Assembly (NCBI GenBank): GCA_028686345.1
Contig: JAQUCE010000011.1
Coordinates: forward strand, 1,355 to 65,354
Source: Kiritimatiellia bacterium
Lineage (GTDB): Bacteria; Verrucomicrobiota; Kiritimatiellia; RFP12; UBA1067
Direction of reading: 5' to 3'
DNA: 64,000 bases
Shown here piece by piece: positions 2,802-34,939 of the stretch. The number at the start of each line of letters is the position of its first letter. The stretch's first letter is position 1. The notes beneath the pieces are model-generated. The model did no database searches. It saw nothing but the letters and a program-made list of their open reading frames with translations, and was not told the DNA's origin. The translations under genes and the position numbers were made by a program.

Positions 2802-3329
2802 GTAAGCTTTTCCCTCTCTGTTCTCTTATATTAACAACAGCATGATTTAGTTTACTGATCTCTACCGTATTCGACATCCCAGCAATGTACCAAGAGCACG
2901 CCGTCGATTGTGACTTCATCAATACAGATCTCGACTTCCTCTTCATCATAGTCAAAATAGATGTCGTCGCATTAAAGCCATGTCATCTTTGACAGCGTCA
3001 CATCGGAAAGTGTTTGCCCACAGGCTGAGTATGTCTTGCAGCAAATTGTTTCTCCTGTTTAAAAGATGTATAGATAATCTACTGTTTTGATGATTATGTC
3101 AATTGTTTTGATGCGGTAATTGTTGTCGGGCGCGAAGGATCGCCATAGTTTGCGACGTAAAAGCTGCGTGCCATAAAATGCTGGCCAAGGCTTGCCGTAT
3201 ATTGGTATTGTAGCTTGAACTTTAGCGAAGTCGGAACTAGGGGTCATTTTATGCGCTTCTTGATGCCGATTCCGATAGCGAGTTATAAGCAAAGGAAAAA
3301 ATCCGGTTGACGATAGCGGCGACGATGCT

Positions 3330-3900
3330 GGTGGACGATTTCCCGCGTGATCCCAACCGTCCACCAACATCGTCGCACAACATGGTCGGTCGTGTTATGA
3401 TTTAGTTCGTGAAAGGCGCGCCATGGGATTTCATGATCTTTGATTGGCTCTGAGAGCCAACCCTACAGTTTCAACTTGAGTTAAGCTTGCAAGTCGCACG
3501 ACATGCGGAAGTGCGTGAGCAACGTAGGTCCGATTTCCAATCGGACATCGCCGGTTGCCAACCATATCACTGGACATAGGGGGTCAAAACGATTGCACTT
3601 TAATTTTCGAAACCACAAGGAACCTAGCGCAACATAGCCGCCTGTCTGCGTGCAACGCACAGGCAGGCAACCAATTTTTTGCCACTGAGACACTGAGGGG
3701 CACAGAGGGTACGCTGGTTATTTTTTAGGTAGAAAAACAGAGGGGTAGAAAAATGGAGAGCGTAATAATTTTTTGCCCGCGAATTAGAGTGCGTGCCCTG
3801 CTGATCACTCGCGTGCCACCCGCCGCCGCCCGCATAGCGAACGACTGCCTGCTCCGCACCTTGCGGAGCAAAGTCAACGCGATACAAAAAAAGCGCATCA
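3330..3900. repeat. Composite intergenic repeat, copy A, inverted relative to the copy at 7250-7900
   Basis: Segments read in the window: ...gtggacgat..cgcgtgatcccaa.cgtccaccaacatcgtcgc (3340-3395), ccatgggatttcatgatctttg (reverse complement of 7436-7457), cactggacatagggggtcaaaacgattgcactttaattttcgaaaccacaaggaacctagcgcaacatagccgc (also 20715-20772 and 30633-30690 inverted), gccgcccgcatagcgaacgac. Confidence 0.5.
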
Positions 3901-3927
3901 CCGGGAGGTGACACGCTATGCTGATAA

Positions 3928-4002
3928 TGGCTCCGGCGACTGGATTCGAACCAGTGACCAAGTGGTTAACAGCCACCTACTCTACCGCTGAGCTACGCCG
4001 GA
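3928..4002 (-). tRNA. tRNA-Asn (anticodon GTT), 75 nt including 3' CCA
   Basis: Reverse complement reads TCCGGCGTAGCTCAGCGGTAGAGTAGGTGGCTGTTAACCACTTGGTCACTGGTTCGAATCCAGTCGCCGGAGCCA. This gives a 7-bp acceptor stem, D arm, anticodon loop CTGTTAA, T-loop TTCGAATCC and a CCA end. The 135-aa plus-strand ORF 3918..4325 over it is spurious. Confidence 0.85.
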
Positions 4003-6158: not shown

Positions 6159-7094
6159 TTACCGCAAATTAAAGATAATGGTCAGGCCGGCGGAAGATTC
6201 GACCGGCTTGGAGCCGATCTTTCCAGCTGCGAACTGCGCCTTTTGCACAGCCTGTTTGGCTGCCTGGTCCAACTCCGGAAATCCGCTGGATTTTGTGATC
6301 TCCACCCTCAGCGCCTCGCCCTCCACGCTGATGCGAACACTGAGGGTCACGGCACCCTCTTCCCCGCGCCGGCGGGCGCCGGCCGGATACACAGGTTTAA
6401 TGGTTTTGCGTGGCCGGGGGGGCACATCAATCCGGGCTGAGGCCGCGCCGCTCTCCGGAGTATCCGATGCCAGTATCTCGGGCACTGGCGCGCGCGGCAG
6501 AGGGCGCTGTTCCGGGGTTTCTGCGATATCTGCCTGGCCCCTCTCCGCTGCTACCTCATGGTTTGGCTGAGCCTTCTCCGGGGCTGGTTTAGGCTCTGGT
6601 TTAGGTTCAAGCTTAGGTGCGGGCTCAGGTGCAGGCTTGGGCTCTGGCGGCGGCTCTGGCGGCGGAATTGGTTCTGGCTCGGGCTCGGGCTCGGGCATTG
6701 GCGGCGGCAGCTCGGGTAACGGTTCGGGCTGCGGCAGCTCAGGCGGCAGCTCAGGCGGCAGCTCAGGTAACGGTTCGGGCGGCGGCAGCTCGGGTGGCGG
6801 CGGCACTACCGGAGGCTCCGGCGTCGGCTTCTCCGGTTCCGGTTTTACCTCGGGTTCCGGTTTAGCTTCAGGCTCCGGGTTCTCTGGTTCAGGAGACGCG
6901 GGGATGTGCTGCGGTGGCGGAGATGGCCGGGAAGCTTGATCAGCGTTTGAGAGGTTTAGCTCAACTGCGCTCACCTCCAACTCCGCCAAGGTGATTATAG
7001 TCGGCGAAGTCGTCTGATTGGCGATCATCAGTATGCCGATTACATGCAGCAGAAGGGTCAGTATAAAAAATGGTGTGTGGTTGGCGAAAAACAT
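6159..7094 (-). CDS. TonB-family energy transducer (N-terminal TM anchor, Pro/Glu-rich spacer with PEPEP/PELPPELP tandem repeats, TonB C-terminal domain)
   Basis: 311 aa. N-terminal hydrophobic helix, about 130 residues of PE/PK-rich repeats, and a C-terminus VYPAGARRRGEEGAVTLSVRISVEGEA...ITKSSGFPELDQAA typical of TonB_C. Confidence 0.7.
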   Translation of the reverse strand: MFFANHTPFFILTLLLHVIGILMIANQTTSPTIITLAELEVSAVELNLSNADQASRPSPPPQHIPASPEPENPEPEAKPEPEVKPEPEKPTPEPPVVPPPPELPPPEPLPELPPELPPELPQPEPLPELPPPMPEPEPEPEPIPPPEPPPEPKPAPEPAPKLEPKPEPKPAPEKAQPNHEVAAERGQADIAETPEQRPLPRAPVPEILASDTPESGAASARIDVPPRPRKTIKPVYPAGARRRGEEGAVTLSVRISVEGEALRVEITKSSGFPELDQAAKQAVQKAQFAAGKIGSKPVESSAGLTIIFNLR

Positions 7095-7249
7095 AGTGCT
7101 ACGTTAATTTTCGTGTTTTTGTACATGTGTGGTCTCTAAAAACATGTTGTCAATGGGCCAATCCTAATCTTTATCGCATGTAATTCGCTGTAGTCGAATT
7201 ATCACTAGGCCCTTGCGGGATGGAAAGAACAATTAATTGTTCTTTCCAC

Positions 7250-7900
7250 AAAGTTGTCTATCGGGTGACAGCTCATAGCCTCTGGCGTATTCGCATCTGC
7301 CGCATGACCTTCAAACTTCACTCAGTTGAAAATGCAGGGTTGGCGGAACTTGTCCGGCGTAGTTCCGCCATGCAACTGCATAGCCCCGCTTGCGGGCGAA
7401 GCCGGGTTGCGGAACGAAGACGGATGAGCCAAACAAAGATTATGAAATCCCATGGCAAGCCTTTGACGACCAATCGCCCGGCATCCGCTAATTGCTTCAT
7501 CCTCCTTCGCCAAGGCTACGGCGGACACGATGGAAGCAACACTACACCCCGGGGCGCGCCTTTCATGAGACTGTTGCAAAATGCCGCTGGTAGAGCGGCT
7601 ACTACGCTGAACGACAACCCTTGCACTCCGCAGTGCAGCGCGTTTGTAGTAGTCGCTCTGCCAGCGACATCGGTTGACGACGATGTTGACCGACGATTGG
7701 GATCATGCGGGGGCTCGTCCACCAGCATCGTCGCCGCTATCGTAAACCGAAGACGCGGCTGACCATACTGCGTGACTTGATCAATCGCATGCCGCCCGCA
7801 GTCGCCCGCATAGCGGACGACTTCCTTGACCCGCGCCTTGGTTTCCAACCGCTAATTTCTCAGCCAGGACGACGACCTTCCGCACGCCACACAAACTCTT
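7250..7900. repeat. Composite intergenic repeat, copy B, between tonB and the pseudopilin operon
   Basis: Modules shared with other intergenic gaps: cttgcgggcgaagccgggttgcgg...gatgagccaaacaaagattatgaaatcccatggc...gccgctggtagagcggct...aacccttgcactccgcagtgcagcgcg...gcgacgatgttgaccgacgattgggatcatgcg..gctcgtccaccagcatcgtcgc...gtcgcccgcatagcggacgacttcc. The same modules recur at 30690-31230, 23460-23700, 42950-43170 and 30205-30290, and inverted at 3330-3450. Confidence 0.55.
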
Positions 7901-7921: not shown

Positions 7922-10900
7922 TTAGTTCTCAAGGTATTTGAAGTAAAGAACCTTCTGCTCAAAGTAGTCATTGGAGCGTCCCAGGCTATCAGGATCATCA
8001 TCATAGGGCTCCCTGGAGCGGTCATCAACTCCCCTATGATGCTGATACCAGGGAGAGATACGGGTGTTGGTTTTTGTTCCGTCATTATACATGTTGGACG
8101 GCTTCACCACCTTTCCAGCCTTATCAGTCTTGGGGTAGGGGTCGCGCCACACCAGAGCAATGGCCTTGCCGCCAGCCAAAGACTTGACCGAGTCGCCAAG
8201 TGAGGGGGCGGTCGCCTCAGCACTGATGATATAGAGAAAGAGCTGCTGACGATCAGAGAAAGAGTCAAGCGTAAAGGAGTAGAGCATCTTGCGATCAACC
8301 TCATGCAGCGCCTTGCTGAGGTTAACAGGTGTGCCTCCTGCTGGCGGCGGATTGGCGGCAGGATCAAGTACCTTATCCGGGTCAGTGGCAGAGTACCAGC
8401 CAAAGTAATTATTGGAGTTATACTCATCTTTGAGGCTTTTGGTGAGGTCGGTGTTGATAGCGGTTGCATTGCGGACATTCATCAGGCAATTAGCCCATCC
8501 ATTGGTGAAGTTTTTCCAGTCGCTACCCTCCATCAGTTTACTGAAGTTACCATCCCGGATTTTGGGCGGAACCGCATTGCCTTTCTCGACTGCATCTGTA
8601 ATCTGGTATGAGACCCAGTAATCCAGAGGAACACGTTCAACAGCAGCCCCCAGCACCAGCGGGATATCGGAGAGCGGGTTGACGCGCGCGCCGATTAACG
8701 AGCCATCCTCATTGGCTGCAATAAAATTCTGGTAGATCGCATCGTGCCGTCGCTTAATCTGATCGCCTGGATCGCCGTGATCATAGAGCCGGATAGTTCT
8801 GAACATGGCATCATAATCATGACATTTATCTGGATCCTTGTGCTCTCTGAAATCAACCACCGGGCCGGTAGGTTGATACGCGAACGGGCGGATAATATAG
8901 CCCAACTCGCCCGGTGACTGCATTTTACCGGCATTGGAAACCGACATAAAAACATCCGCATCCCGTCCGTCATTCAGTGCCAGAATGTCTCTGGTGGATT
9001 TATTCAACCTGCCATCCGCCTCCGGCACATCACTTTTGATCCAGTTACTGACCTTCCAGTTAAAACGCGGGTCCGGTGTTTCAAGGCATGTCCACGCATA
9101 AGTCAGGTCAATCGGAACCGCCATGTTTTTCCCCAGCGCGGGCGATGGAACACTCTGGAAAAAGATTTTTTGGCTTGCTTGAAACTCATCCGCCTCAGTG
9201 ATTCTGTTCGCGCCGGGGAACCTGATCATTGTCGGCACGCAATCGACATATTTGTTATTGGTATTGTTTTTAATCCGGACGTAACCCAGCACCAGCGAAA
9301 CACTGATCAGGCTATCCGCGGCAAATCCGTTGTAAGGGACGCCATCGCTGTCAATAAGATCAAGATTGGGGGTTCCGCCGGGAGTGTTAAAAATGGCAGT
9401 CAGGGGGATATTAACGACTCGGCAGGTCTGTTCCTGATCAATGATATTACTGTTCCACTGATTAGGCGCAGCTGCATTGCCTTTTAATTCTATCAGGTAG
9501 TCAGAGGCTGGACCAGGAGCCTGGCCGATAAAACTGCCTGAATTCTGATCTGCGTGCACCTTATTCACCTTGAGGTAAGCGAGCACCTCAACCGTGTAAC
9601 CCGGTGTACTGGTGCGCAGCGATGTGTTTTTAAAGGGCCACATCACTTCAACATTGATAAAGGTGGTTGGAAGAAGGCGGGTAAAATCCAGGGTGTAGAT
9701 TAAGATATCCTCATTATCAGCATTTTTAGCGGCACGTGTGGTTATAAACGCCTGCGCCAGAGGCGGAACCGAGATCTGGGAGATCATGGGAGCAAGCTCA
9801 ACCGACGGCATATTAAGCGCCTTGGGAACATCATCCTCATCAAGATAGTCGGCCAGCAGGGTCGGCAGAATATCATTGAAGCTTCGGGTAACATCCACCC
9901 CTGCGCTGACATTGTCTTTCAAGGCCTCCTTCAAAGTGGCGCCGAAAGTTCCCTGAAACTCCACATCTTTATCAGGCTGAAGAGTGGTCAGATAGGCATC
10001 CGAAACAGGGGGATGGGTCAGGATGTTATGGGGCTCAGGGTTTTTCACTGGCTCGGCCATCGCCACGCCATCTGTGATTAAGATCTGCTTTGAAGCGTTT
10101 CGAAACGGTTCATAATCATAACCTGTGTTAAGGTAATCATGCCAAGGGCTGCGGAAAAGGGTGCTGTCCGCCATCTCAAACATACAGGAGTAAAAATCCT
10201 GCAGGGTTGTGTAGTTGATATCACTCTCTTTGACCCGCTTGTCAAATGCCTTTCTCTGGGCATCATCCCTAAAGAGGTGGCCTATACTGACCCGGTTTTC
10301 CGCGCCATCGCGCACCTCGGCCTTACAGTAGTTGACATTCAGCATATCCGAAACATTGATGCAGATATACGCGTAGCGCCCGATCACCGCCTCTTCATAA
10401 GCATTCAACCCCTCCATTGTGATCAGCGGCATGCTGAGCGGCCGCCACTTGGCACCGAGGTGCCCCATGCCGGCATTCGGAGCGCCGGCTGGCCGCGGCA
10501 GCGCGTAGTAGCGCACATCATTGAGCAGAATGCCGGGGATATAGGCGAGCGCGCCCAGGGTCAGCACGCGCGCGTTAGCACTGTTGTCAGCACTGTTGAC
10601 CACCGCCGAGGTACGGACGCGTCCGGGCCAGGTCGGAAATTTACGTGGATTGGGAGCACCGGCGATCGTTGTGGCGCGCAGATCGCTATCGACCTCATCC
10701 ATGGCGCGGTAGAGGGCCGCGTTCAGCATATGGCGGGCACTGGCAGCGTGGCGGTAGTTAGAGGAGGCCTGGCGTTCGATACGCATATAGATGGCGAACG
10801 CTACTGCACTGATCATCATAAAACTCAAAAAACCGAGTACAATCAAGAGTGCGGAGCCGCGTTGACCCCGGCCTGGTAAAGGATTTGTGTTGTTTCTCAT
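7922..10900 (-). CDS. Giant GspK-like minor pseudopilin (992 aa), last gene of the T2SS/type-IV-pilus-like operon
   Basis: N-terminus ...RGQRGSALLIVLGFLSFMMISAVAFAIY matches the GspK leader consensus (RGxALLxVL..). It is about 3 times longer than a canonical GspK, and the rest has no domain I can name. Confidence 0.6.
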   Translation of the reverse strand: MRNNTNPLPGRGQRGSALLIVLGFLSFMMISAVAFAIYMRIERQASSNYRHAASARHMLNAALYRAMDEVDSDLRATTIAGAPNPRKFPTWPGRVRTSAVVNSADNSANARVLTLGALAYIPGILLNDVRYYALPRPAGAPNAGMGHLGAKWRPLSMPLITMEGLNAYEEAVIGRYAYICINVSDMLNVNYCKAEVRDGAENRVSIGHLFRDDAQRKAFDKRVKESDINYTTLQDFYSCMFEMADSTLFRSPWHDYLNTGYDYEPFRNASKQILITDGVAMAEPVKNPEPHNILTHPPVSDAYLTTLQPDKDVEFQGTFGATLKEALKDNVSAGVDVTRSFNDILPTLLADYLDEDDVPKALNMPSVELAPMISQISVPPLAQAFITTRAAKNADNEDILIYTLDFTRLLPTTFINVEVMWPFKNTSLRTSTPGYTVEVLAYLKVNKVHADQNSGSFIGQAPGPASDYLIELKGNAAAPNQWNSNIIDQEQTCRVVNIPLTAIFNTPGGTPNLDLIDSDGVPYNGFAADSLISVSLVLGYVRIKNNTNNKYVDCVPTMIRFPGANRITEADEFQASQKIFFQSVPSPALGKNMAVPIDLTYAWTCLETPDPRFNWKVSNWIKSDVPEADGRLNKSTRDILALNDGRDADVFMSVSNAGKMQSPGELGYIIRPFAYQPTGPVVDFREHKDPDKCHDYDAMFRTIRLYDHGDPGDQIKRRHDAIYQNFIAANEDGSLIGARVNPLSDIPLVLGAAVERVPLDYWVSYQITDAVEKGNAVPPKIRDGNFSKLMEGSDWKNFTNGWANCLMNVRNATAINTDLTKSLKDEYNSNNYFGWYSATDPDKVLDPAANPPPAGGTPVNLSKALHEVDRKMLYSFTLDSFSDRQQLFLYIISAEATAPSLGDSVKSLAGGKAIALVWRDPYPKTDKAGKVVKPSNMYNDGTKTNTRISPWYQHHRGVDDRSREPYDDDPDSLGRSNDYFEQKVLYFKYLEN

Positions 10901-10920
10901 TCTACTTTCCTCTAAATAGG

Positions 10921-11370
10921 TTAAGGTGCCACGGCGGCGCGCATGCGGTTGGGGAAGGTCACTGCGGAACCAAAGTAATCTGTGGTCTTATTGTCACCAC
11001 CGCTGTCGCTCAGCAGCCTGAAGCGGTAGGGTGTGCCCCACGGGTCACGAAAGGCGCCGTTGATCAGCTGCACGTTCAAAAAAACCGTCTTAGAGTCGTT
11101 CTTGCCCAGCAGCTCGGATATGTTGCCTTCAGTTGCTTCAACCACGTCGCCCTGCACTGCAACTGGCCAGTCATCATAGGAGGCCTCATAAGAGAGCCAG
11201 GCGTTCATCAGGGAGCGCACCTCGGAGTTGGCTTTGGCGACCCGCGCCGCAGTGCGCGCCCGACCGATGCCGGTAAAGGTGACACCCATCAGAATACTGA
11301 TCATGCCCAGCACCACCAGCATCTCCACCAATGTGAAGGCATTGCTCGTATTGTCTTTAAATCTTTTCAT
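10921..11370 (-). CDS. gspG: Type II secretion / type IV pilus major pseudopilin, GspG family
   Basis: Prepilin leader MKRFKDNTSNA|FTLVEMLVVLGMISIL, and GspG C-terminal motif RDPWGTPYRFRLLSDSGGD. Start moved to the internal ATG at 11370 with a GGAGG RBS. Confidence 0.7.
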   Translation of the reverse strand: MKRFKDNTSNAFTLVEMLVVLGMISILMGVTFTGIGRARTAARVAKANSEVRSLMNAWLSYEASYDDWPVAVQGDVVEATEGNISELLGKNDSKTVFLNVQLINGAFRDPWGTPYRFRLLSDSGGDNKTTDYFGSAVTFPNRMRAAVAP

Positions 11371-11441
11371 ACTCTTTTTCAAACCTCCAAAGGCGCATAA
11401 ACTCACGCACCTTAGAACTTTAGAACTCTAGAACTTCTCCC

Positions 11442-12098
11442 TCACTCCGCCCAGGTGCGGATATCATCCTTGGTGCCCCAGACACCGTCGGGTCCGGCTG
11501 AGGCGGCGCCAATCTCCAGGTTATACCCCAGTGATTCGACTTTGGCTTTCAGGCGCACTGATAAAGGCAGCCCATCCGTGGGGTTTGTGCCGAACTCAGC
11601 CTCAAAACTCTGCAGGTCAGTGGTCGGTGTGTTCTGACTGCCGCTGCTCTCAAAAAACTTCTTAACATCTGAAGTAATCGTCTCTTTACCGCCTCGGGCG
11701 AGCAGGATGGTCTCAATTCTTTTTCCCTCTGTATTATACTGAATAAAAGAGAGGCTGCGGCGGGCGGAGTTACCAAAATCATCCCCTTCAAAACCGCTGG
11801 ATGAAAGAGTATAAAACCTGAGTTCACTGCCTTTAAAACTCTGCGAGCCGGGGAGTTGATCACGCAGCTCCTTTGGGATGGAGCGCGCATCAACAGCCTT
11901 GGCCGCATCGCGCTGGATCGAGCCGATCAGCGAGCGGATCTGCATAAAGGCATCCGCCCGCCGCACGCCGGTGCGCCAGGCCATGCTGGTCTGTTGAAAG
12001 AGCATGGCCAGCATCATCACAATCACCACCAGGATCGAGGATGCAACAAGCACCTCAATCATGGAAAATCCCGCGTTTTTATTGGTTCTGTAGTTCAT
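11442..12098 (-). CDS. Minor pseudopilin (GspJ/PulJ-like), prepilin-type N-terminal cleavage/methylation domain
   Basis: MNYRTNKNAG|FSMIEVLVASSILVVIVMMLA leader plus hydrophobic helix. Confidence 0.6.
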   Translation of the reverse strand: MNYRTNKNAGFSMIEVLVASSILVVIVMMLAMLFQQTSMAWRTGVRRADAFMQIRSLIGSIQRDAAKAVDARSIPKELRDQLPGSQSFKGSELRFYTLSSSGFEGDDFGNSARRSLSFIQYNTEGKRIETILLARGGKETITSDVKKFFESSGSQNTPTTDLQSFEAEFGTNPTDGLPLSVRLKAKVESLGYNLEIGAASAGPDGVWGTKDDIRTWAE

Positions 12099-12142
12099 GG
12101 TCGCTTTTCACCCTCAAGTGTTGATGCGCATCAGGGGCGCTG

Positions 12143-12667
12143 TTACGGCGTGCCCTGGAACATCGCCTCCGCATAGTAGATCGGGTTGTTGGAGTATTGG
12201 TTATAGTTGTTCAAATTTTTCAGCTCGGTTGACTGCACCATAATGCCCATAATCCGACCAGAGAAGCCGGGCACAATCGTGCAGACAACCCGGTAGCGTC
12301 CGCCCAGCTTGGGCGCATCGCTCCAATCGGTCTCTTTAATTTGGCTCCCCATAAACCCTGGCCACACGTTACCGGAATTGCCTTTGACAGAGTCAGCCTT
12401 GGGAACCTGGGCGGACCATTGAGCCCAGGTGATATTGGTCTGCGAGGCAGCGGCCACGGCCTGGTTGAGCACGTAATCGGCCAGCATGCTCTGCTTTAGA
12501 TCAGCCTGTCCCTGAGTACTCTCACGCAGACCAAGGGGATAGAGCACTACCATGCTGAGAATGCCGACTGACATGACAAAGACCGCCATGTTGACCTCCA
12601 TCAGGGAGAAGGCTGCCCGTTGCTCTTTTTTCTTGCATAATTTCATACGATCACCACTTGCTGTCAT
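12143..12667 (-). CDS. Minor pseudopilin (GspI-like), prepilin-type N-terminal domain
   Basis: ...KEQRAAFSLMEVNMAVFVMSVGILSMVVLYP. The track ORF starts with GTG at 12694; ATG starts at 12667 or 12646 are more likely. The start is uncertain. Confidence 0.5.
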   Translation of the reverse strand: MTASGDRMKLCKKKEQRAAFSLMEVNMAVFVMSVGILSMVVLYPLGLRESTQGQADLKQSMLADYVLNQAVAAASQTNITWAQWSAQVPKADSVKGNSGNVWPGFMGSQIKETDWSDAPKLGGRYRVVCTIVPGFSGRIMGIMVQSTELKNLNNYNQYSNNPIYYAEAMFQGTP

Positions 12668-13496
12668 ACTCGACTTTACCCTCTTTTGTGACACGAACAG
12701 TTGTGCTTTTATATGGAGGAGAGGTTTCAGCGATTGCGATTGTAACCCTTTTCAGTGCGCGGCCATCCGGCAGGAAGGTGAGCACCTGAATCCTTTTCTC
12801 ATCCTCCTTCAGATCTTTAAACTCGAATAATTTCGGCAGAGTCTGAACAGGCGCGGCTTCAACCCCGTACGAATCGCCAACGCGCCAAACATCCCCGCCA
12901 GCCCGGACAGGCACATTGCGGTTGATCTCAAAACACCAGGCATTGATCACATCCTCTTTGGGCCCTGTGCGGGGTTTATACGCTGACTGCCGCCCGGAAA
13001 TCATATCCTTTGAGCTGACCACCCATGGATAGACAAAGGAGAAGCCGCCCTCAGTGTTGGTCAGATTGTACAGACGGAAGCCGCCTTTATAGCTTGAGGC
13101 GTTCTCCAACGCAACAGTGCTGAACATGGTGTCCAGCGAGTTGAACTCGTCAATCAGGTATTGGTTGCCCGGCGGTATAAACGAGATCTTGCCGACCTCT
13201 TTACAAACAACATAGGAGGGGATCACCGCCTTCTTGCTGCCGCCGAGATCCGCGTCAACAATGCCGCTGACCTCATTGTAAAGCACCACACTAACGCGCG
13301 CGTTGTCCATGCAGGCGCGCTGCCTGGCCAGTGTCAGAGTGTTGGCCAGATGCTTGACAGCACCACGCCGCGCCATGCCGCGTGCCGCGCCAAAATAACT
13401 GGTGACCGCCAGGGTGGTCAGCAGCCCCATGATCGACAGCACTGCCAGCAACTCCAGCAAAGAAAAGCCAAACTCGGTTTTTTTTCTCGCACCCAT
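12651..13496 (-). CDS. Minor pseudopilin (GspH-like), prepilin-type N-terminal domain
   Basis: MGARKKTEFG|FSLLELLAVLSIMGLLTTLAV. The internal ATG at 13496 was chosen. Confidence 0.6.
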   Translation of the reverse strand: MGARKKTEFGFSLLELLAVLSIMGLLTTLAVTSYFGAARGMARRGAVKHLANTLTLARQRACMDNARVSVVLYNEVSGIVDADLGGSKKAVIPSYVVCKEVGKISFIPPGNQYLIDEFNSLDTMFSTVALENASSYKGGFRLYNLTNTEGGFSFVYPWVVSSKDMISGRQSAYKPRTGPKEDVINAWCFEINRNVPVRAGGDVWRVGDSYGVEAAPVQTLPKLFEFKDLKEDEKRIQVLTFLPDGRALKRVTIAIAETSPPYKSTTVRVTKEGKVEYDSKW

Positions 13497-13519
13497 ACTC
13501 TCTCTCACCCCCCTGCAAA

Positions 13520-14011
13520 TCATCGGGCCACCCTGACCGAATCAGTTGCCAGATTATACTCCACCGTGAAAAACTTGAACTCCCTGGTGTTGCGCGGGTC
13601 AGCGTAGCCCAGCGGCAGATCGGTCTTGCCCTGCTCCAATGCCTGCCTAACCGACATCCGGGAACCATCGACTCTGGTTAAAATCGCCGAAGGGTCGACA
13701 TAGTTGTTCTTGGACTTGAACATCTTCTTGAAAGCCTTCTGATTGTTCTCGCCTTCCACCTTGTAAAGTGTCTGTGAATTGCCAACCCTTTTCATATCAG
13801 AGAGCTCAAACGGCCACTCATTCTGCTGCGCCCGGTAGTTGTTGAGCGCCATCTGCAGACCGCTGACCATCGCGTCGACCCTCTTTTCGCGCATGGTGCG
13901 CATTGACCTCATCACCGCGCCGGTTGCCAAGGTGGTAATCATCGCCATCACCGCCACAACCACCAGCATCTCCACAATGGTAAAGCCTTTTCGATTATTT
14001 TTTTTATTCAT
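13520..14011 (-). CDS. Pseudopilin, GspG family (prepilin-type N-terminal cleavage/methylation)
   Basis: MNKKNNRKG|FTIVEMLVVVAVMAMITTLA, with an AGGAGA RBS 8 nt upstream of the ATG. Confidence 0.7.
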   Translation of the reverse strand: MNKKNNRKGFTIVEMLVVVAVMAMITTLATGAVMRSMRTMREKRVDAMVSGLQMALNNYRAQQNEWPFELSDMKRVGNSQTLYKVEGENNQKAFKKMFKSKNNYVDPSAILTRVDGSRMSVRQALEQGKTDLPLGYADPRNTREFKFFTVEYNLATDSVRVAR

Positions 14012-14270
14012 ACGTCTCCTTTGGTCTCGTACCTATAACTCGTTCACTTGGCCGCGGTTGCGTGACTATAACTCAGGGGCGGGGTCGGGGTCGAAAAGCG
14101 AAACAATCGACTTGGCGATATCACGACTTCACGACTTCCGATTTCCAGGCTGCCGAACTTCGAGTTATCTCCTCGTTTTTTCGCAGCGCGCTGCGCACCC
14201 GGTTTGCCGCCTGCCTTCGATGCCGATGCCGACTCCGATGTTCTCCGCCCCTAACCTCTAACCCCTGGCA

Positions 14271-14912
14271 CTACTGCTCTGATATCACCTGCGCGTGATT
14301 CCAGCTGATCAGATCATCGTAGGGATAGCGGTTCCTGGCCTTGGGGTTTCTGCTCTCAAAATCATCCTGTCCGTCAGGGCCGCGCGACCAGACAATAACA
14401 TTGGCGCGGATGGTCAGTCCTTTGGGCGAACCCTCTTTGGCATCAACATAGCCGTCATTGTCAATATCCAGCCGGAACTGGATTCTGCGATCCTCAATCT
14501 TCACTCCGTCAAATCCAACCTGGGCGGCGGTGGAGAGCGACGGGTTGCGCCGCAGAGCATCGCGCCCCCACTCATCGAGAAAGCCAAAGCGGTCAAGGCT
14601 GGTGCTGTTGAGGTTGCCAAGATCAACCTTAACGTCCAGCAGGTGGTTCTGCGCCAACACCTGGCAGACCTTCTCATCCATCTCCAGCGCGTTGATCATA
14701 GTCTGATGCCACCGCCGCTCCTTCTGCAAGTAGAGGTTCAAGGCTGTGTGGGCATCGCTCACCGCGCCCTGCGCTTTGGCGCGCTTGGCGCTTCTTTTCA
14801 AGTGGCCCACCGAGGTCATCATGGCAGCGGAGATCATACCGATTATGCCGATCACCACCAGCAACTCCACCAGCGTAAAGCCGCCCCGCCCGTTATTTTC
14901 AAATTTTTTCAT
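14271..14912 (-). CDS. Pseudopilin, GspG family
   Basis: MKKFENNGRGG|FTLVELLVVIGIIGMISAAMM, and C-terminal ...VIVWSRGPDGQDDF. The track ORF begins with TTG at 14939; the ATG at 14912 was used. Confidence 0.65.
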   Translation of the reverse strand: MKKFENNGRGGFTLVELLVVIGIIGMISAAMMTSVGHLKRSAKRAKAQGAVSDAHTALNLYLQKERRWHQTMINALEMDEKVCQVLAQNHLLDVKVDLGNLNSTSLDRFGFLDEWGRDALRRNPSLSTAAQVGFDGVKIEDRRIQFRLDIDNDGYVDAKEGSPKGLTIRANVIVWSRGPDGQDDFESRNPKARNRYPYDDLISWNHAQVISEQ

Positions 14913-14939
14913 ACTGTGAATCATCCTACTCGCCTTCAA

Positions 14940-15254
14940 TCCTGATCCCGACTCTGGCGGAGCACTTACCGCTTAAAACTTACCACTTACCGCTTAAAAC
15001 TCGCCTTCGATCCCGACCCCGACTCCGCTGGCCGCTGGCCACTGGCCGCTAGCCGCTGGCTGCCTTGTAGGGCGCGACTGCGAACGTGCAGTGCTTCGCA
15101 AGCCTCAGCTAGCAATCGTCTGGTCAGAAAAGCACCATCCCGAGGTCATGGCCCTCGGCTACAATGCTTCGCAAGCAACTTCCAACCTCCAACTTGCCGT
15201 CGATACCGACCCCGACCCCGAGTCGCACCAACCCCCTAAACCCTAAACCCCGGC
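14940..15254. repeat. Low-complexity spacer packed with short direct repeats and G/C-tract motifs between pseudopilin genes
   Basis: Segments read: cttaccgcttaaaact twice, gctggccgctggccactggccgctagccgctggc, tgcttcgcaagc twice, ccctaaaccctaaacccc. The motif cgccttcgatcccgaccccgactcc also occurs at 14215-14245 and 15197-15232, and the related ggggcggggtcggggtcg at 14084-14101. Confidence 0.5.
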
Positions 15255-16313
15255 CTAGCGGTCAAAGCCGACAATGTCATCCTTAGTCCACCCGGAGACC
15301 AGCTTCAGGTCGTCCGAGCTGAGCGACTCAAGCGGTATCCAAGGAGGGAAGGTATTTCCATCTGAGCCTGCTGACCAGATCCGGTAGCTCTGGTAGGGCG
15401 GGGCAGAGTAGTAGAAAAAGTCATTGCCCCAGCCATCCACAACCGTGGTGCAAAACAGAATGGTTTTTTGTCCATCTTTGGAGTACGCACCCCTGAATTG
15501 ATGAGAGCCGCCCATGGAGTCCTGCACATCTCCGCCGCCTTGAAGCACAGTGTTCATAATGGTCGGCGCATGACCGCTCAAAATGCCCTCAAGGTTGGGG
15601 AGCCACTTGGCGCACTCGCGCATCTCCAGCTCGCGCTGGCCTTTGAGCGCATTGCGCAGTTTGTCCTTGTTGCCAGCACCGATGCGTGAGCTCTTGTTAT
15701 GAAGCCCCCACTGTTTACTGTGATAAAACCCTTCGATCGGCTGATCCCTGCTAAAAGCACTGGTTTCCGGGGGAATCCCTACCAGCTCCACACGGGGCAG
15801 TAGAAAAGAGAGCAAGCCGAACTTGAACATCTTCACTTCCTCCCACATGGCATTTGGTATGGTTGCCGCATTGTTGTAAACTTCGTTCACGGTTCGAATC
15901 TGCTGATCGCGAAACTTCTCGTTGACAAACTCATCATAGGTCTGGGGATAGGGGTACTCAAAGGAGACCGGCTGAGCGCGCGCCGCCCAGCGCGCGGCAG
16001 CCGTTTTTTGACCGCCGCTCCAGGGGATTTTCTCGCCACCCTGCGCCCCGCGGTCATCCGAAGCGTTCATGGGATCCGGGTTGGCATACAACGGCACTGG
16101 AGGGTAGGTGCCGTAGGAGGAGTAAAACCCTGAGATCGCATTCTGCAACCGCTCCATACGCGCCTTGGTCTGGGCTGTTTTGGAGTTTTCAGAGACCGCG
16201 CTGAACAGCTTGAAGACTGATGCAATCAAGATGCCGATAATCACCAGCACCACCATCAGCTCCAGCAAGGTGAAAGCGCGCTTACTGTTAAATTTATTAA
16301 CCTTTGCACTCAT
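15255..16313 (-). CDS. gspG: Large GspG-family pseudopilin (352 aa)
   Basis: KRAFTLLELMVVLVIIGILIASVF, and C-terminal GspG signature DGWGNDFFYYSAPPYQSYRIWSAGSDGN. GGAGGA RBS. Confidence 0.7.
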   Translation of the reverse strand: MSAKVNKFNSKRAFTLLELMVVLVIIGILIASVFKLFSAVSENSKTAQTKARMERLQNAISGFYSSYGTYPPVPLYANPDPMNASDDRGAQGGEKIPWSGGQKTAAARWAARAQPVSFEYPYPQTYDEFVNEKFRDQQIRTVNEVYNNAATIPNAMWEEVKMFKFGLLSFLLPRVELVGIPPETSAFSRDQPIEGFYHSKQWGLHNKSSRIGAGNKDKLRNALKGQRELEMRECAKWLPNLEGILSGHAPTIMNTVLQGGGDVQDSMGGSHQFRGAYSKDGQKTILFCTTVVDGWGNDFFYYSAPPYQSYRIWSAGSDGNTFPPWIPLESLSSDDLKLVSGWTKDDIVGFDR

Positions 16314-16327
16314 AAATATCCTCCATG

Positions 16328-16346
16328 AGCAAGCAGGATGCTTGCT
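16328..16346. promoter_or_regulatory. 19-bp perfect palindrome AGCAAGCAGGATGCTTGCT immediately upstream of the RBS of the 352-aa gspG-like gene
   Basis: 8-bp arms with a 3-bp centre. Related copies at 23749-23767 and 30088-30106. Confidence 0.35.
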
Positions 16347-16481
16347 CTACTTCAAACTTGATTTCTCCAAACGCGCAGCGTTTGTGACTAAAGCAGCGGG
16401 CCCATAACCATGAACTTTTCAGTGAGAGCGAATGCCGTCCGCACATCGCTCAGCCGCATTTGGTTTCCGCAGCTAGCTGCT

Positions 16482-17786
16482 TTAGCTCGATGATCCGAGT
16501 GTATTGATAATCTGAATCATAGGCATGAACATCGCGATCACAATCGTTCCGACCACCACAGCCAGCACAATGATCATCAGCGGCTCAATCACGGATGTCA
16601 AACCAGCGACAGCGTTGTCCACCTCATCGTCGTAGGTTTCCGCAACACGTCCAAGCATGTCAGGCAGCGCGCCGGTCTCCTCGCCCACCTCTACCATCGA
16701 GATCACCATCGGGGGGAAAACCTTACAGGCTGAGAGCGGCGTGGTCATGCTCTCACCCTCTTTGACGCTGTCGTGCACCGACTGAATCGCGCGGGAGATC
16801 ACCGCGTTACCGGTGGTGTCGCGCACAATTGTCAGCGCCTGCAGTACCGGAACACCCGAGGAGAGCAGAGTTCCCAAGGTGCGGGTCATGCGGGAAATCG
16901 CGGTTTTCCTGATCAATCCGCCGAAGAGCGGCATATTGATTTTGGCAACATCAAGGATATAAGAGCCGTTTTTTGTTTTGGCAAAGACTTTAAACAGCGT
17001 GACAAAGACCGCAATGCCAATCAGTACGACTATCCAGTTGGCAACCACCAGATTACTGGCGTCCATCACAAACTGTGTGATCGCCGGCAGCGGCTGACCA
17101 GCCAGCAGATCATTAAAAATGTCGCTGAACTTAGGAATCACCGCGACCAGCAAGAACCCGGTGATACCCACCGCGGCGATCAGCACCACAACCGGATAAA
17201 CCATGGCGCCCTTGACCTTGTTCTTGATCTTCTCCGCTTTTTCCGCGAATTCGGCGAGACGGTTGAGCACCACCTCCAGCACACCGCCAGCCTCACCGGC
17301 ACGCACCATGTTGATGTAGAGATTGTCGAAAATTTTGGGGTAGTTGGCGAGCGACTCGGAGAAGGTGCTGCCGCTCTCAACCGCCTCACCCATGCCGCCC
17401 AACGCATCACGCAGGGTCGGATGAGCGGTCTGGCGCTTGAGCACGTTTAATCCACGCAGCAACGGCAGACCCGCGTCCACCAGCGTGGCGAGCTGCCGGG
17501 TCAACACTGTCAGGTCTTTTTGCTTTACCCTGGGCCGCAGAAATTTCGGCATCTTAAACTCAATGTTGGTCTTGCCTAAGCTCTTCTTTTTGGCACCCCC
17601 GGCGGCTGCTCTGGGCGCGGCTTTCTTAGCCGCTGTGCCGCTTCCGCCACCAGCCTCGCCGATCGCGGTTGGAAACAACCCCATGCCGCGGACAGCCGCA
17701 ACGGCCTGCGCCTGGGTCGCGGCTTCCACCGTGCCGCGGCTCTCTTTACCTGTCGAATCTTTAGCAATATACGCAAACTTGGGCAT
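16482..17786 (-). CDS. gspF: Type II secretion / type IV pilus inner-membrane platform protein (GspF/PilC family)
   Basis: MPKFAYIAKDSTGKESRGTVEAATQAQAVAAVRGMGLFP is a typical PilC/GspF N-terminus. Two GspF domains and a polytopic membrane region. The start was trimmed from 17846 to the internal ATG at 17786 (GGAG RBS). Confidence 0.8.
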   Translation of the reverse strand: MPKFAYIAKDSTGKESRGTVEAATQAQAVAAVRGMGLFPTAIGEAGGGSGTAAKKAAPRAAAGGAKKKSLGKTNIEFKMPKFLRPRVKQKDLTVLTRQLATLVDAGLPLLRGLNVLKRQTAHPTLRDALGGMGEAVESGSTFSESLANYPKIFDNLYINMVRAGEAGGVLEVVLNRLAEFAEKAEKIKNKVKGAMVYPVVVLIAAVGITGFLLVAVIPKFSDIFNDLLAGQPLPAITQFVMDASNLVVANWIVVLIGIAVFVTLFKVFAKTKNGSYILDVAKINMPLFGGLIRKTAISRMTRTLGTLLSSGVPVLQALTIVRDTTGNAVISRAIQSVHDSVKEGESMTTPLSACKVFPPMVISMVEVGEETGALPDMLGRVAETYDDEVDNAVAGLTSVIEPLMIIVLAVVVGTIVIAMFMPMIQIINTLGSSS

Positions 17787-17994
17787 AATCAGCTCCGAAA
17801 ATAGTATGTTATCTCTTATGTCTCCGCCCGGCTTCACGCTGTTCAACAGCTACAAAAACAGACAAAAACACCCCTTCTCAAATTTCATGCTTACAGCATA
17901 CCACAGTATGCACCTGACAGTAAATAGCTGTTTTTGCTTTAAAATGCGGTGGTAAGTAATTGAAACCTTAGCCTCTCTGTGTCATAATACGGCA

Positions 17995-19557
17995 ATGAAA
18001 AAAACAAGTGCCCTTTTTAGTGCCCTCCTGATGAGCGTTGTACTCGCCGCCGTTGGGGCAACGCCCTCGCCCGCAACCATTTTTAAAACCGGGTTCGAAG
18101 GGAAATCCGAGCGCGAGCTGTTCAAACTCTGCCCCTCTGCAAGCTTTCCGAGCCAGGACAAAGAGACTTTTCTGAAGGTTAGCGCCACCAGCCGTCAAGC
18201 TAACAACACTTCGTCGATACAGCTTGATCTCGCGCCGTATAAAGGAAAGATGATCGCTGTGAGCGCCCGCGTCAAAGCCGACGAGGTTTCAGAGCCAGAT
18301 CAAAGATGGAACGGTGTCAAGCTGATGCTGCACTTTGAAACCGAATCCAAGGGCAAGGAGTGGCCAGGGGCCAACATTGATAGCGGCTCTTTTGATTGGA
18401 AAACCATCAGCTTCACCACCGTCTTGCCCGAGGATATCAGCGCTGCGACTTTGAACCTCGGGTTGCAGGACAGCACAGGCACTGTCTGCTTTGATGATAT
18501 CCGAATAGTTATAACCAAACGCCAGCGCATCCAGCACCCACCCCCAGGGAGCTTTACGCAGAAGGCATTCAAAGGCCACCCTCTACCGCGCCTGCGCGGC
18601 GCCATGACCGGCTCTAAGCTGGAGGAGGAGGACATCCGCACCTTTGCACAGGATTGGGGCGGCAATCTCCTGCGCTTCCAGATCAACCGCAACTGGCACG
18701 CCTCCAATGATAACCGCGACCTGGCAGAGTACAACCTTTGGATCGACTCGCAGCTTGATCTGCTTGAACGTGTCCTGCCGCTCTGCCGAAAATACGGGGT
18801 GTATGTCGCGCTTGACCTGCACGCCCTGCCTGGCGGTCGCTATACAGACCGCTCCATGGCAATGTTCTACGAGCCGGTTTATGCCGCTGCGTTCATCGAG
18901 GTGTGGGAGAAAATTGCCCGCCGATGCAAGGGCAACCCTGTGATCTGGGCCTATGACCTGGTCAATGAACCAGTGCACGCGCACCTCATCCCGGAGGGCA
19001 TGGCTGATTTCTGGGAGTTGCAAACTGCCGCTGCGCGCGCTATCCGCGCGATTGAACCGGACAAGCCCATTATTTTCGAGGTGTTTATGTGGGATTCACC
19101 CGAGGGCTTCAACTACGTGCGCCCGGTAGAGCTGCCAAACATCATCTACCAGGCCCACATGTATGAGCCTGGACGTTTCACACATCAGGGCATATCCGGG
19201 AATCCATTTGATATCCGCTACCCTGGGGTGATCAATGGCCGGGAGGAAAATCAGGCGACCCTGCGGGAGTACCTAAAGCCTGTGCGCGACTTTCAACTGG
19301 CCTACAACCAGCATATCTATCTCGGCGAATTCAGCGCAGCCCGCTGGGCGCCTGGCGCGGAGCGCTACCTGAGCGATGTGATTGAAATCTTTGAGGAATA
19401 TGGCTGGGACTGGAGCTACCACGCCTACCGTGAGGCTCAGTGCTGGAGCCTGGAACACACAGAGGATAAAAACAAAACTGAACTGGCCCGTGAACCAACC
19501 CAGCGGTTGCAAATCATTAAAAAATGGTTTTCACAAAACAAGAGGGCCTTCCAATGA
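17995..19557 (+). CDS. Secreted glycoside hydrolase family 5 (cellulase/mannanase-type) with an N-terminal extra domain
   Basis: Signal peptide. GH5 catalytic motifs: IWAYDLVNEP (acid/base) and YLGEFSA (nucleophile). Confidence 0.8.
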   Translation: MKKTSALFSALLMSVVLAAVGATPSPATIFKTGFEGKSERELFKLCPSASFPSQDKETFLKVSATSRQANNTSSIQLDLAPYKGKMIAVSARVKADEVSEPDQRWNGVKLMLHFETESKGKEWPGANIDSGSFDWKTISFTTVLPEDISAATLNLGLQDSTGTVCFDDIRIVITKRQRIQHPPPGSFTQKAFKGHPLPRLRGAMTGSKLEEEDIRTFAQDWGGNLLRFQINRNWHASNDNRDLAEYNLWIDSQLDLLERVLPLCRKYGVYVALDLHALPGGRYTDRSMAMFYEPVYAAAFIEVWEKIARRCKGNPVIWAYDLVNEPVHAHLIPEGMADFWELQTAAARAIRAIEPDKPIIFEVFMWDSPEGFNYVRPVELPNIIYQAHMYEPGRFTHQGISGNPFDIRYPGVINGREENQATLREYLKPVRDFQLAYNQHIYLGEFSAARWAPGAERYLSDVIEIFEEYGWDWSYHAYREAQCWSLEHTEDKNKTELAREPTQRLQIIKKWFSQNKRAFQ

Positions 19558-32370: not shown

Positions 32371-32387
32371 CCATTAACCCTTCAATT

Positions 32388-34854: not shown

Positions 34855-34939
34855 CTATAAACTGCAAGATATGTATTAGATCGAGACATGACAATATGGT
34901 ATCATGTTTGAAGTTTCCTTAAAACCTCAAAAGGATATT

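Follow-up and report, generated by a model that had tools for sequence, protein, structure and literature searches.

A run of nine genes on the minus strand of a Kiritimatiellae MAG contig raises the question of which kind of type IV filament machine it encodes, and what its last product, a protein of 992 aa, contributes to that machine. The window analysed is a 64-kb stretch of this contig, and between positions 7922 and 17786 it carries a gene for a GspF/PilC platform protein, seven prepilin-type genes and the gene for the 992-aa protein. All nine ORFs of the initial annotation are present, and the upper end that it gave, 17786, is the likely gspF start (M21), the ORF itself opening with TTG at 17846. 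It had also described gspF as the first gene with a divergent GH5 gene upstream, and that gene is indeed there. In the direction of the run the features are as follows.

17995-19557, plus strand: divergent upstream gene, GH5 (Pfam Cellulase, 2.6e-23)
16482-17786 (ORF to 17846), minus strand: gspF, GspF/PilC-type inner-membrane platform protein (Pfam T2SSF, E 3.8e-63)
15255-16313, minus strand: 352-aa prepilin, GspG-like at its N- and C-terminus, with about 200 residues inserted
14213-15216, minus strand: GTCGGNNTCNGNATYGAMGGC motif, four copies, in two long intergenic gaps 3′ of the 352-aa and 222-aa genes
14271-14939, minus strand: 222-aa prepilin, GspG-like, likely start the ATG at 14924
13520-14011, minus strand: 163-aa prepilin, GspG likeness in the alpha-1 helix only
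12651-13523, minus strand: 290-aa minor pilin, GspH/FimU position, counterpart of Verru_Chthon cassette protein D
12143-12694, minus strand: 183-aa minor pilin, GspI/PilV position, counterpart of Verru_Chthon cassette protein B
11442-12098, minus strand: 218-aa minor pilin, GspJ/PilW position, counterpart of Verru_Chthon cassette protein C
10921-11406, minus strand: 161-aa pseudopilin between the 'J' and 'K' genes, likely start M13 at 11370
7922-10900, minus strand: 992-aa GspK/PilX-class cap candidate, with a prepilin-like leader without Glu5 and a 59-residue alpha-1

Glycan-degrading genes are abundant in the window as a whole.

The layout had been taken for an oddity of one locus. It is instead the invariant arrangement of the whole phylum Kiritimatiellota: the same nine genes stand in the same order in 50/50 complete loci from other genomes, and the other 25 loci, which are cut by contig ends, all carry suffixes of that order with no exception. 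The 992-aa protein shows 24 to 73% identity across these loci. Each genome has a single locus, genes being split at contig ends only, and on a complete 6.1-Mb chromosome that one copy encodes a 941-aa orthologue of the 992-aa protein. Conservation does not extend to the flanking genes; the nine thus act as a unit of their own.

That the unit is a platform and pseudopilin operon of a T2SS-like type IV filament, as first proposed, is borne out by its products. GspF matches Pfam T2SSF as two repeats, and its NCBIfam scores of 400 bits with PilC, 396.5 bits with GspF (cut-off 424) and 264 bits with XpsF therefore permit no assignment to T2SS or T4P. Prepilin leaders had been ascribed to all eight proteins that follow. 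In seven of them the class III signal is canonical, [G/A]|F[T/S]xxE, and is detected in each by Pfam N_methyl or TIGR02532, the weakest match being that of the 183-aa protein (N_methyl E 0.048), but the eighth, the 992-aa protein, has a GspK-type variant, RG|SALLIVL, with no Glu at +5.

The likeness to GspG over full length is greatest in the 161-aa pseudopilin, whose residues 23-131 match TIGR01710 (7.8e-9) and include a DPWGTPY motif, and whose family profile aligns with PulG 5wda, positions 14-119 on 1-99 (E 9.7e-6). The 352-aa prepilin matches Pfam N_methyl (8.6e-8), TIGR01710 GspG over residues 12-71 (49 bits) and Pfam T2SSG at residues 290-320; its family profile matches pilin alpha-1 helices in the PDB and its gene is kept in all 50 complete loci. 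In the 222-aa prepilin a G|FTLVE leader (Pfam N_methyl 9.2e-7) and an N-terminal GspG match (6.8e-7) are accompanied by a C-terminal motif, DEWG...SRGPDG...DDLISW, that can be seen directly in the sequence. Among the proteins labelled gspG these three alone have the GspG-specific C-terminal motifs (DxWG, SxGxDG...DDIxxW); the 163-aa prepilin, with leader G|FTIVE (Pfam N_methyl 1.4e-7) and a GspG match of 2e-8 over residues 8-74, is GspG-like in its N-terminal helix alone. The initial annotation spoke of five GspG-type pseudopilins, though its own list holds four.

The N-terminus of the 290-aa minor pilin matches TIGR01708 GspH (2.1e-9), with further matches to Pfam GspH at residues 200-279 (0.0024) and to TIGR02596 (1.6e-5). 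The 183-aa minor pilin, which probably starts downstream of the GTG, has the leader A|FSLMEV, of which F, L and E are invariant in the family alignment, and matches TIGR02523 PilV (1.8e-5) and TIGR02598 (5.7e-5). In NCBIfam the 218-aa family matches TIGR02599 (43/44), and also GspJ (8) and HpsC (10), and in comparison with the PDB the SAGPDG..DDIxTW at its C-terminus finds the Ca-loop region of GspG, so that a protein labelled gspJ-like also ends in a GspG-type loop. Gene order and N-terminal profile matches, themselves weak, tentatively suggest the H, I and J assignments of the 290-, 183- and 218-aa proteins, in line with the labels first given.

The 992-aa protein had been described as very large, GspK-class and for the most part unassigned, and the some 900 residues beyond alpha-1 indeed found no match in Pfam, PDB sequence searches or Foldseek. 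Full-length homologues number at least 459, and cluster representatives 1462; hundreds of independent assemblies encode homologues of 900-1160 aa with 99-100% query coverage. Its leader is invariant in the family from G15 to F24 (RG|SALLIVLGF) and 55% identical over 22 residues to the GspK leader QRG|VALLIVL. When the family was aligned with 48 GspK sequences by hhalign the match (probability 76%, E 2.2e-5) was confined to alpha-1, and a motif common to the family, ADY[LI]DxDDxP, aligns as ADYLDxDDxP with the DWxDxD motif of GspK (motif window 330-380, probability 65%); the likeness is limited to 67 N-terminal residues and one short motif. T2SS_GspK (16/46) and Verru_Chthon_A (8/46) are the only NCBIfam models matched recurrently by family members, but Pfam T2SSK or T2SSK_1st is matched by 0/46, and a Foldseek search with the model had no GspK structure among its best 50 PDB matches and none at E <= 0.001. 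The alpha-1 helix and the one motif window lend homology to GspK weak support.

The AlphaFold check that had been suggested gave a confident single-chain AF2 model (pLDDT 87.2, pTM 0.86), in which the 59-residue alpha-1 is followed by about 800 residues of unassigned globular domains and a highly conserved C-terminal beta-hairpin. Conservation has its maxima at residues 1-80, 641-680 and 881-920, and the central beta-rich region is variable with many indels. That alpha-1 and the final beta-hairpin are the most conserved parts is as expected of an assembly interface.

A leader without Glu5 and a long alpha-1 are shared with the tip complexes of proteobacterial T2SS (GspK with GspI-GspJ) and T4aP (PilX with FimU/PilV/PilW), and as with GspK and PilX the gene is last and largest in the minor-pilin run, after the GspH/I/J-position genes. 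GspK has about 330 residues whereas the protein here has about 990 and reaches 22 bits with NF037980, whose cut-off is 130; unlike T2SS there is an extra GspG-like gene between 'J' and 'K', and the operon lacks the GspC/D/E/L/M/O genes. The Verru_Chthon cassette (TIGR02596, TIGR02598, TIGR02599, TIGR02600), a four-gene minor-pilin set of the PVC group described from Verrucomicrobia, also ends in a GspK-like giant, protein A (profile length 1296), and the 290-, 183-, 218- and 992-aa proteins each match one of its members, in the order D, B, C and A. The scores, 25, 23, 24 and 19 bits over N-terminal helices only, are far below the cut-offs of 70, 51, 257 and 332, which sets the Kiritimatiellota proteins apart as a family of their own. 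Verru_Chthon cassettes are multi-copy according to their TIGRFAMs description, whereas here the cassette is fused into an operon, present once in each genome, that also includes gspF and four more GspG-like genes. Oversized or modular tips of type IV filaments are known in Thermus ComZ with PilA2, in PilY1 and in the modular pilins of Streptococcus sanguinis, and the 992-aa protein has in common with them the concept of a large functional module at the tip, on or beside the minor-pilin complex; PDB sequence search and Foldseek found no sequence or fold similarity between it and any of them.

The reported absence of ATPase and secretin genes in cis holds for the 64-kb window, where Pfam scans of all large ORFs and phmmer searches of every window ORF with E. 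coli Gsp queries revealed no homologue of GspE, GspD, GspO, GspC, GspL or GspM. Related genomes encode GspE and a secretin elsewhere than within the nine-gene operon, and in three relatives such partners are near it: a lone GspE in one and an Amuc_1098-type secretin in two. The GspE gene (TIGR02533, 575 bits) is 5.5 kb downstream of the operon of a gut species, but GspE fits PilB, and GspF fits PilC, equally well, with all scores below curated cut-offs. In the second relative, L058, the order is Amuc_1098-type secretin, coaE, rho, gspF, which matches the synteny of secretin, dephospho-CoA kinase and rho that is reported to adjoin MUL2 in Akkermansiaceae (PMC13174399). In the third, L076, a distant relative (28% identity), five homologues stand immediately after the K-like gene and make up the complete Amuc_1102/1101/1100/1099/1098 set, the MUL2 of Akkermansia muciniphila, with its PilQ-like secretin, PilM-like Amuc_1101 and PilO/N-like Amuc_1100. 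The MUL2 genes are absent from the window and from most related loci, such linkage being seen at 2 of the roughly 55 loci whose flanks were usable, and the MUL2 literature describes no gspF-pseudopilin operon or giant cap protein. Going by gene neighbourhood in these two genomes only, the Amuc_1098-1102 homologues are plausible outer-membrane and alignment partners of the operon.

On balance the nine genes probably supply the platform and full filament subunit set of the one type IV filament machine of Kiritimatiellota, T2SS-like and with its parts dispersed over the chromosome; secretion is the function that we prefer for it. The leaders of the eight proteins would be cleaved by a prepilin peptidase encoded elsewhere, and the 290-, 183- and 218-aa minor pilins would form a priming complex with the 992-aa protein, equivalent to GspH/I/J/K, to FimU/PilV/PilW/PilX and to Verru_Chthon cassette D/B/C/A. 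As it has no Glu5, the 992-aa protein could only cap the filament, as its topmost subunit. The GspG-like subunits (161, 352, 222 and possibly 163 aa) would then be added below the cap at the GspF platform, powered by a GspE-type ATPase, and this would take place beneath an Amuc_1098-type secretin and a PilM/GspL-like protein, with all three encoded at other loci. As output we favour the export, by type II secretion, of the numerous exo-glycosidases and sulfatases that these bacteria have, and the oversized cap would then be the piston face or the surface that contacts the substrate. At about 110 kDa the cap far exceeds any characterised T2SS tip that we know of and may not fit the secretin vestibule, which counts against secretion. 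In its favour, a T2SS has been inferred from the genome of Kiritimatiella glycovorans, in which no TonB-dependent uptake receptors were found (PMC5148204).

The lack of detected glycan receptors of that type, and the abundance of glycan-degrading genes in the window, would also suit a different and less probable proposal, that the product is a surface type IV-like pilus, the same machine as PVC MUL2/Amuc_1098-1102, with the 992-aa protein as tip adhesin for polysaccharide or particles. Such a pilus might serve for attachment or, by extension and retraction, pull glycans to or through the secretin. [quoted passage not shown] The central module of the 992-aa protein, variable, rich in indels and all-beta, has, moreover, the look of a ligand-facing tip; a role as tip adhesin or in enzyme display, as first suggested, is a hypothesis. 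Yet Pfam, NCBIfam, PDB sequence and Foldseek searches found no lectin, CBM, enzyme or adhesin domain in the protein, nor any lectin or CBM fold (the best Foldseek E-value was 5.6e-3, with TM <= 0.21), the linkage to MUL2 genes is as rare as stated above and in one of the two cases comes from a distant relative, no PilT-type retraction ATPase has come to light, and the GspG-type motifs of the subunits are typical of pseudopilins. We know of no report of piliation in cultured Kiritimatiellota, which likewise counts against a surface pilus.

Both the secretion machine and the surface pilus take the 992-aa protein to be a filament subunit. It is improbable that it is instead a bitopic inner-membrane or periplasmic accessory, such as a factor for assembly or substrate recruitment, or a peptidoglycan spacer, with a helix that is GspK-like merely as a hydrophobic anchor. 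The restricted extent of the GspK similarity would be explained, as would the lack of any pilin-fold match in Foldseek and a mass ten times that of a normal pilin head domain, but the invariance of the leader and its identity to that of GspK would not, and the recurrent curated-family matches are to GspK and Verru_Chthon_A only. Furthermore, the gene invariably lies where GspK or PilX would, downstream of the I- and J-like genes; the modelled alpha-1 is as long as that of a pilin, and a pilin-type sheet could be completed by the conserved beta-hairpin at the C-terminus. The earlier worry that the large ORF is an artefact, two genes joined by a sequencing frameshift or MAG mis-assembly, is refuted by the full-length homologues in hundreds of independent assemblies, the orthologue on the complete chromosome and the confident single-chain model.

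The two long intergenic gaps 3′ of the 352-aa and 222-aa genes are not kept in the relative L002; an Rfam search with them gave no match and their folding energy shows no excess. The GTCGGNNTCNGNATYGAMGGC motif that they contain has four matches there against 0.03 expected, and 0 elsewhere in the window.

The feature is real and well delimited and of a known kind, a minor-pilin/pseudopilin operon; what is genuinely uncharacterised is its last product, one of a phylum-wide family of giant putative cap proteins for which neither a domain nor a relative in fold could be detected. The initial annotation placed a nine-gene pseudopilin operon on the minus strand at 7922-17786, and ORF listing, translation and Pfam/NCBIfam matches bear it out, with nine co-directional minus-strand ORFs spanning 7922-17846. 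The start of gspF is taken to be 17786 since profile alignments begin at M21 of its ORF. The divergent GH5 gene described upstream is also present.

17846 (TTG start of ORF), minus strand: GspF/PilC platform protein, first gene of the operon (Pfam T2SSF, 3.8e-63)
Upstream of gspF, divergent: GH5 enzyme gene (Pfam)

The seven genes that follow gspF encode, in order, proteins of 352, 222, 163, 290, 183, 218 and 161 aa, all with a class III signal, [G/A]↓F[T/S]xxE, by Pfam N_methyl or TIGR02532, the match of the 183-aa protein being weak (N_methyl E 0.048). The last gene encodes a 992-aa protein whose leader, GQRG↓SALLIVLGF, has Ile instead of Glu at +5, and lack of Glu at this position is a hallmark that it has in common with GspK/PilX-class subunits. 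The earlier claim of prepilin leaders on all eight proteins after gspF thus holds, with seven of class III and one of GspK type without Glu5.

A canonical type II secretion system (T2SS) has a single major pseudopilin, GspG, of about 140 aa, while here there are three or four GspG-like genes. Scores against TIGR01710 (GspG, cut-off 88.85) are 49, 29, 36 and 34 bits for the genes of 352, 222, 161 and 163 aa, all under the cut-off. The 161-aa protein is the most GspG-like across its full length (residues 14-119 of its family profile align with 1-99 of PulG, 5wda), and the 352-aa protein is GspG-like at both termini with about 200 additional residues between. C-terminal SxGPDG...DDIxxW loops of GspG type are present in the 222- and 218-aa proteins. 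The count of five GspG-type genes needs correction, as the list on which it was based itself shows four, and those that are GspG-like here are the genes of 352, 222, 161 and possibly 163 aa. For the 290-, 183- and 218-aa proteins the labels H, I and J have as their basis weak N-terminal matches together with gene order. Profile searches of the PDB with the I, J and H families and with those of the 352- and 161-aa proteins returned pilin alpha-1 helices and GspG fragments and nothing else.

There is a parallel in another PVC phylum, where the Verru_Chthon minor-pilin cassette of Verrucomicrobia also ends with a giant GspK-like gene, of a family that is named but unstudied. The 290-, 183-, 218- and 992-aa proteins match Verru_Chthon D, B, C and A (TIGR02596, TIGR02598, TIGR02599 and TIGR02600) one to one, with 25, 23, 24 and 19 bits against cut-offs of 70, 51, 257 and 332, the last of these matches being at the N-terminus, and cassette protein C is matched by 43/44 members of the J family. 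With scores so far under the cut-offs, the four are distant analogues of the cassette proteins, not members. The 290-aa protein also matches GspH, the 183-aa protein PilV, the 218-aa protein GspJ/HpsC and the 992-aa protein GspK.

The two intergenic gaps that follow the 352-aa and 222-aa pilin genes are unusually long and hold all four copies of the motif GTCGGNNTCNGNATYGAMGGC (minus strand, 14213-14233, 14932-14952, 15003-15023 and 15196-15216; 0.03 expected), with further short tandem-like repeats, GGTTTAGGG, GCGGCCAG and TAAGCGGTAAGTG, among them. The gaps are not in one relative checked (L002), and the repeats match no Rfam family and show no excess of folding energy.

The gene order is not the local oddity that it was taken for. 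A scan with one genome per species gave 75 distinct related loci, one per genome, almost all from Kiritimatiellota (NCBI labels vary) and including a complete 6.1-Mb chromosome (OW818680.1). All nine genes are present in 50 of them, in identical order in every case, and the other 25 are cut by contig ends, each holding a contiguous suffix of the nine-gene order without exception; the layout is therefore phylum-invariant. The flanking genes vary by lineage, and no neighbouring gene is conserved phylum-wide among these loci. An additional prepilin gene of 310-335 aa (DUF1559-like, with an H-x9-DG motif) is just downstream of the K gene, that for the 992-aa type of protein, in six loci from rumen and gut Kiritimatiellae (L046, L052, L057, L060, L062 and L070), and a conserved, cytoplasmic-looking ORF of about 190 aa occurs in 16 loci (13286-13873 in L069); neither is in the window.

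A Kiritimatiellae MAG encodes a hypothetical protein with 100% identity to the 992-aa protein. Homologues of 900-1160 aa number at least 459 and cover 99-100% of the window protein, all unannotated and none with a Pfam domain, and an exhaustive profile search gave 1,462 cluster representatives, of which 538 have E ≤ 1e-30. That it could be two ORFs fused by a sequencing frameshift, a caveat attached to the initial annotation, is excluded by the full-length homologues, the complete chromosome and a confident AlphaFold model of the single chain (pLDDT 87.2, pTM 0.86).

Its likeness to GspK is seen at the N-terminus, where a Glu5-less leader and a hydrophobic alpha-1 helix are features of both. 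The leader RG↓SALLIVL has 55% identity to that of E. coli GspK across 22 residues, and NCBIfam T2SS_GspK (NF037980) gives 22 bits against a cut-off of 130, over residues 13-76 only. T2SS_GspK (16/46 family members) and Verru_Chthon_A (8/46) are the sole recurrent curated families, and these N-terminal matches are all that Pfam and NCBIfam yielded with the 992-aa protein and 46 family members. Alignment of the K family to 48 GspK sequences by hhalign (probability 76%, E 2.2e-5) is restricted to the 67 columns of the alpha-1 helix. Further along, the motif ADY[IL]DxDDxP, noticed by eye, is common to the two (LADYLDEDDVPK in the window protein, IADYIDVDDSPR in E. coli GspK), and hhalign of residues 330-380, a stretch picked after the motif had been seen, aligned it with a probability of 65% and E of 6e-5. 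Regions 600-800 and 860-992 gave no significant alignment to GspK. In contrast to GspK, for which the family models (NF037980, PF21687 and PF03934) score above cut-off over the globular alpha-domain, the 992-aa protein does not reach these thresholds, and none of 46 family members matches Pfam T2SSK (PF03934) or T2SSK_1st (PF21687) even at E ≤ 1. Foldseek with the full model found no PDB match at E ≤ 0.001, no GspK chain among the best 50 matches, and no viral structure at E ≤ 0.001. Profile searching gives weak support to the proposed GspK likeness for the alpha-1 helix and one motif, and does not extend it to the T2SSK domains.

The statement that most of the protein is without assignment also stands, Pfam, Foldseek and a PDB sequence-profile search (which was empty) all being blank beyond the N-terminus. 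Conservation in the family peaks in alpha-1 (1-80), a GRDxD...SPGELG block (641-680) and a C-terminal hairpin (881-920), and the central modules are variable and indel-rich. A central beta-rich module, residues 365-610, is modelled well separately (pLDDT 91.9) and has no structural relative in the PDB (best E 5.6e-3, TM ≤ 0.21); its matches to legume lectins, alginate lyases and GH2 sandwiches are all too weak for a lectin or CBM identity. We take the 992-aa protein for a GspK/PilX-class subunit that has diverged strongly and, at the level of fold, we infer that its pilin core is interrupted or prolonged by about 800 residues of lineage-specific domains.

The rest of the machine would be encoded elsewhere. 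A canonical T2SS cluster has gspD and gspE together with gspF-K, plus gspC/L/M/O; the operon is without these, and searches of the 64-kb window found no gene for GspE, secretin, prepilin peptidase or GspC/L/M, in agreement with the earlier remark that ATPase and secretin are lacking in cis. Among type IVa pilus parts (PilB, PilT, PilC, PilMNOPQ, major pilin), the window has the PilC/GspF-like gene alone, and its product scores 396.5 bits with TIGR02120 (GspF, cut-off 424) and 400 and 399 bits with PilC models (cut-offs 700). The flanks of the 75 loci, a median of about 3.5 kb upstream of gspF and up to 10 kb downstream of K, gave matches to missing T2SS parts in only three loci: one GspE and two secretins. 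The GspE (MshEN and T2SSE domains) is solitary, 5.5 kb downstream of K with unrelated genes between, in a human-gut Kiritimatiellae species (L069), and scores 575 bits with TIGR02533 and 554 with PilB. Judged by such profiles, platform and ATPase do not appear to separate T2SS from type IV pili (T4P).

The two secretins are of the Amuc_1098 family. In one locus (L058) the secretin gene comes first, about 2.5 kb upstream of gspF, with coaE and then rho between it and the operon, a linkage found in no other related locus. In the second (L076, 3215-12810, a Verrucomicrobiota-labelled MAG), homologues of Amuc_1102, 1101, 1100, 1099 and 1098 come directly after the K-like gene, the same five-gene set as the Akkermansia 'pili-like' cluster, MUL2. 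All five families are present, two at or over cut-off (the PilM-like Amuc_1101 homologue scores 481 bits and the secretin, about 7 kb downstream of K, 505 bits). A gene for a 23S-rRNA-intervening-sequence protein is between the Amuc_1100 and Amuc_1099 homologues. Amuc_1098-1102 family genes are absent from the window and from all loci but these two, of which L058 has the secretin alone; among the relatives a PilM-like gene is seen only in L076 and PilQ-like genes only in L076 and L058. About 55 loci have flanks that could be used and only 2 of them show the linkage to MUL2, which is a lead, not a rule. To our knowledge, clear assignments of filament subunits to MUL2 are lacking. No outer-membrane protein of A. 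muciniphila is more abundant than Amuc_1098 (PilQ) (PMC4960237), and MUL2 is reported to be important for mucin acquisition, with a type IV-like pilus proposed for glycan attachment (PMC13174399; bioRxiv 10.64898/2025.12.30.696933). Synteny of secretin, dephospho-CoA kinase and rho has been reported next to MUL2 (PMC13174399).

The operon, as we read it with moderate confidence, encodes the platform and every filament subunit of a type IV filament machine of PVC type whose parts are dispersed, and defines the complete, invariant filament gene set of the single such machine of Kiritimatiellota. The four distal proteins would form a priming complex with the Glu5-less 992-aa protein as terminal cap, beneath which the GspG-like subunits would polymerise. 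A GspE would power this, with a PilM/GspL-like protein and an Amuc_1098-type secretin above it; the genes of all three would be elsewhere. The filament tip is the most likely position for the 992-aa family. For the output we lean toward exo-enzyme secretion, because the subunits are GspG-like, because these organisms secrete many glycan-degrading enzymes, with many of the genes in the window itself, and because a T2SS is inferred for the type species (PMC5148204). The main rival, less likely but a real possibility, is that the genes build a MUL2-like surface pilus at whose tip the 992-aa protein would bind glycan or particles; platform and ATPase profiles fit T4P as well as T2SS, and the sheer size of the cap speaks against a purely periplasmic piston. 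It is unlikely that the operon supplies the moving component of a machine for glycan capture and import. In that reading a short fibre with the 992-aa protein as its cap would bind polysaccharide at the cell surface and, together with a MUL2-like PilM/secretin assembly, would pull the polymer through the secretin into the periplasm, much as competence pili serve DNA uptake; Kiritimatiellota would then have a TonB-independent 'selfish' polysaccharide uptake, as by extension would other PVC bacteria without SusC/D. That the 992-aa protein is an accessory outside the filament is unlikely given its invariant GspK-type leader and fixed gene position.

In oceans, sediments, rumen and gut, Kiritimatiellota rank with their PVC relatives among the major degraders of glycans of sulfated and mucin type. 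Little is understood of the way in which they manage enzyme export or polymer uptake without systems of the Bacteroidota kind. The locus singles out a phylum-wide family of proteins of about 1,000 residues that numbers at least 1,462 cluster representatives, lacks Pfam domains and has no relative of solved structure in the PDB. Two relatives' neighbourhoods tie the operon to the Amuc_1098-1102 system, where filament subunits lack clear assignment, and studies of binding, localisation and structure thus have a concrete target in the cap protein.

Other features of the window include:

72-2801, minus strand: fused restriction-modification gene, 909 aa, with N6_Mtase, Eco57I and HSDR_N_2 domains
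7220-7762, plus strand: ORF of 180 aa, convergent with the K gene, no confident family
27084-29741, plus strand: ORF of 885 aa, no Pfam match
34904-38620, plus strand: ORF of 1238 aa, weak DUF6259 match only

The first of these is in a stretch (1-4002) with a GC content of 44%, against about 55%, next to tRNA-Asn (3928-4002, minus strand), and the whole is probably a genomic island that went in at the tRNA gene. About 0.8 kb downstream of K, on the same strand (6159-7094, minus), is the gene for a 311-aa protein whose C-terminal domain is that of TonB, a placement that is not conserved in the related loci. Genes for a NapC/NirT-like multihaem cytochrome c, a GMC oxidoreductase and a gluconate-2-dehydrogenase subunit-3-like protein are together at 31249-34854 (minus strand) and may be a periplasmic sugar-oxidising respiratory module. 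A large glycan-utilisation cluster at 38790-63223 encodes three BNR sialidase-like proteins, Laminin_G_3/PKD, GH42-like and beta-helix proteins, a 1132-aa fusion of GH123 and sialate O-acetylesterase (SASA), a GntR/FCD regulator and a TRAP transporter (DctP, DctQ, DctM), which suggests use of sialylated or amino-sugar glycans.
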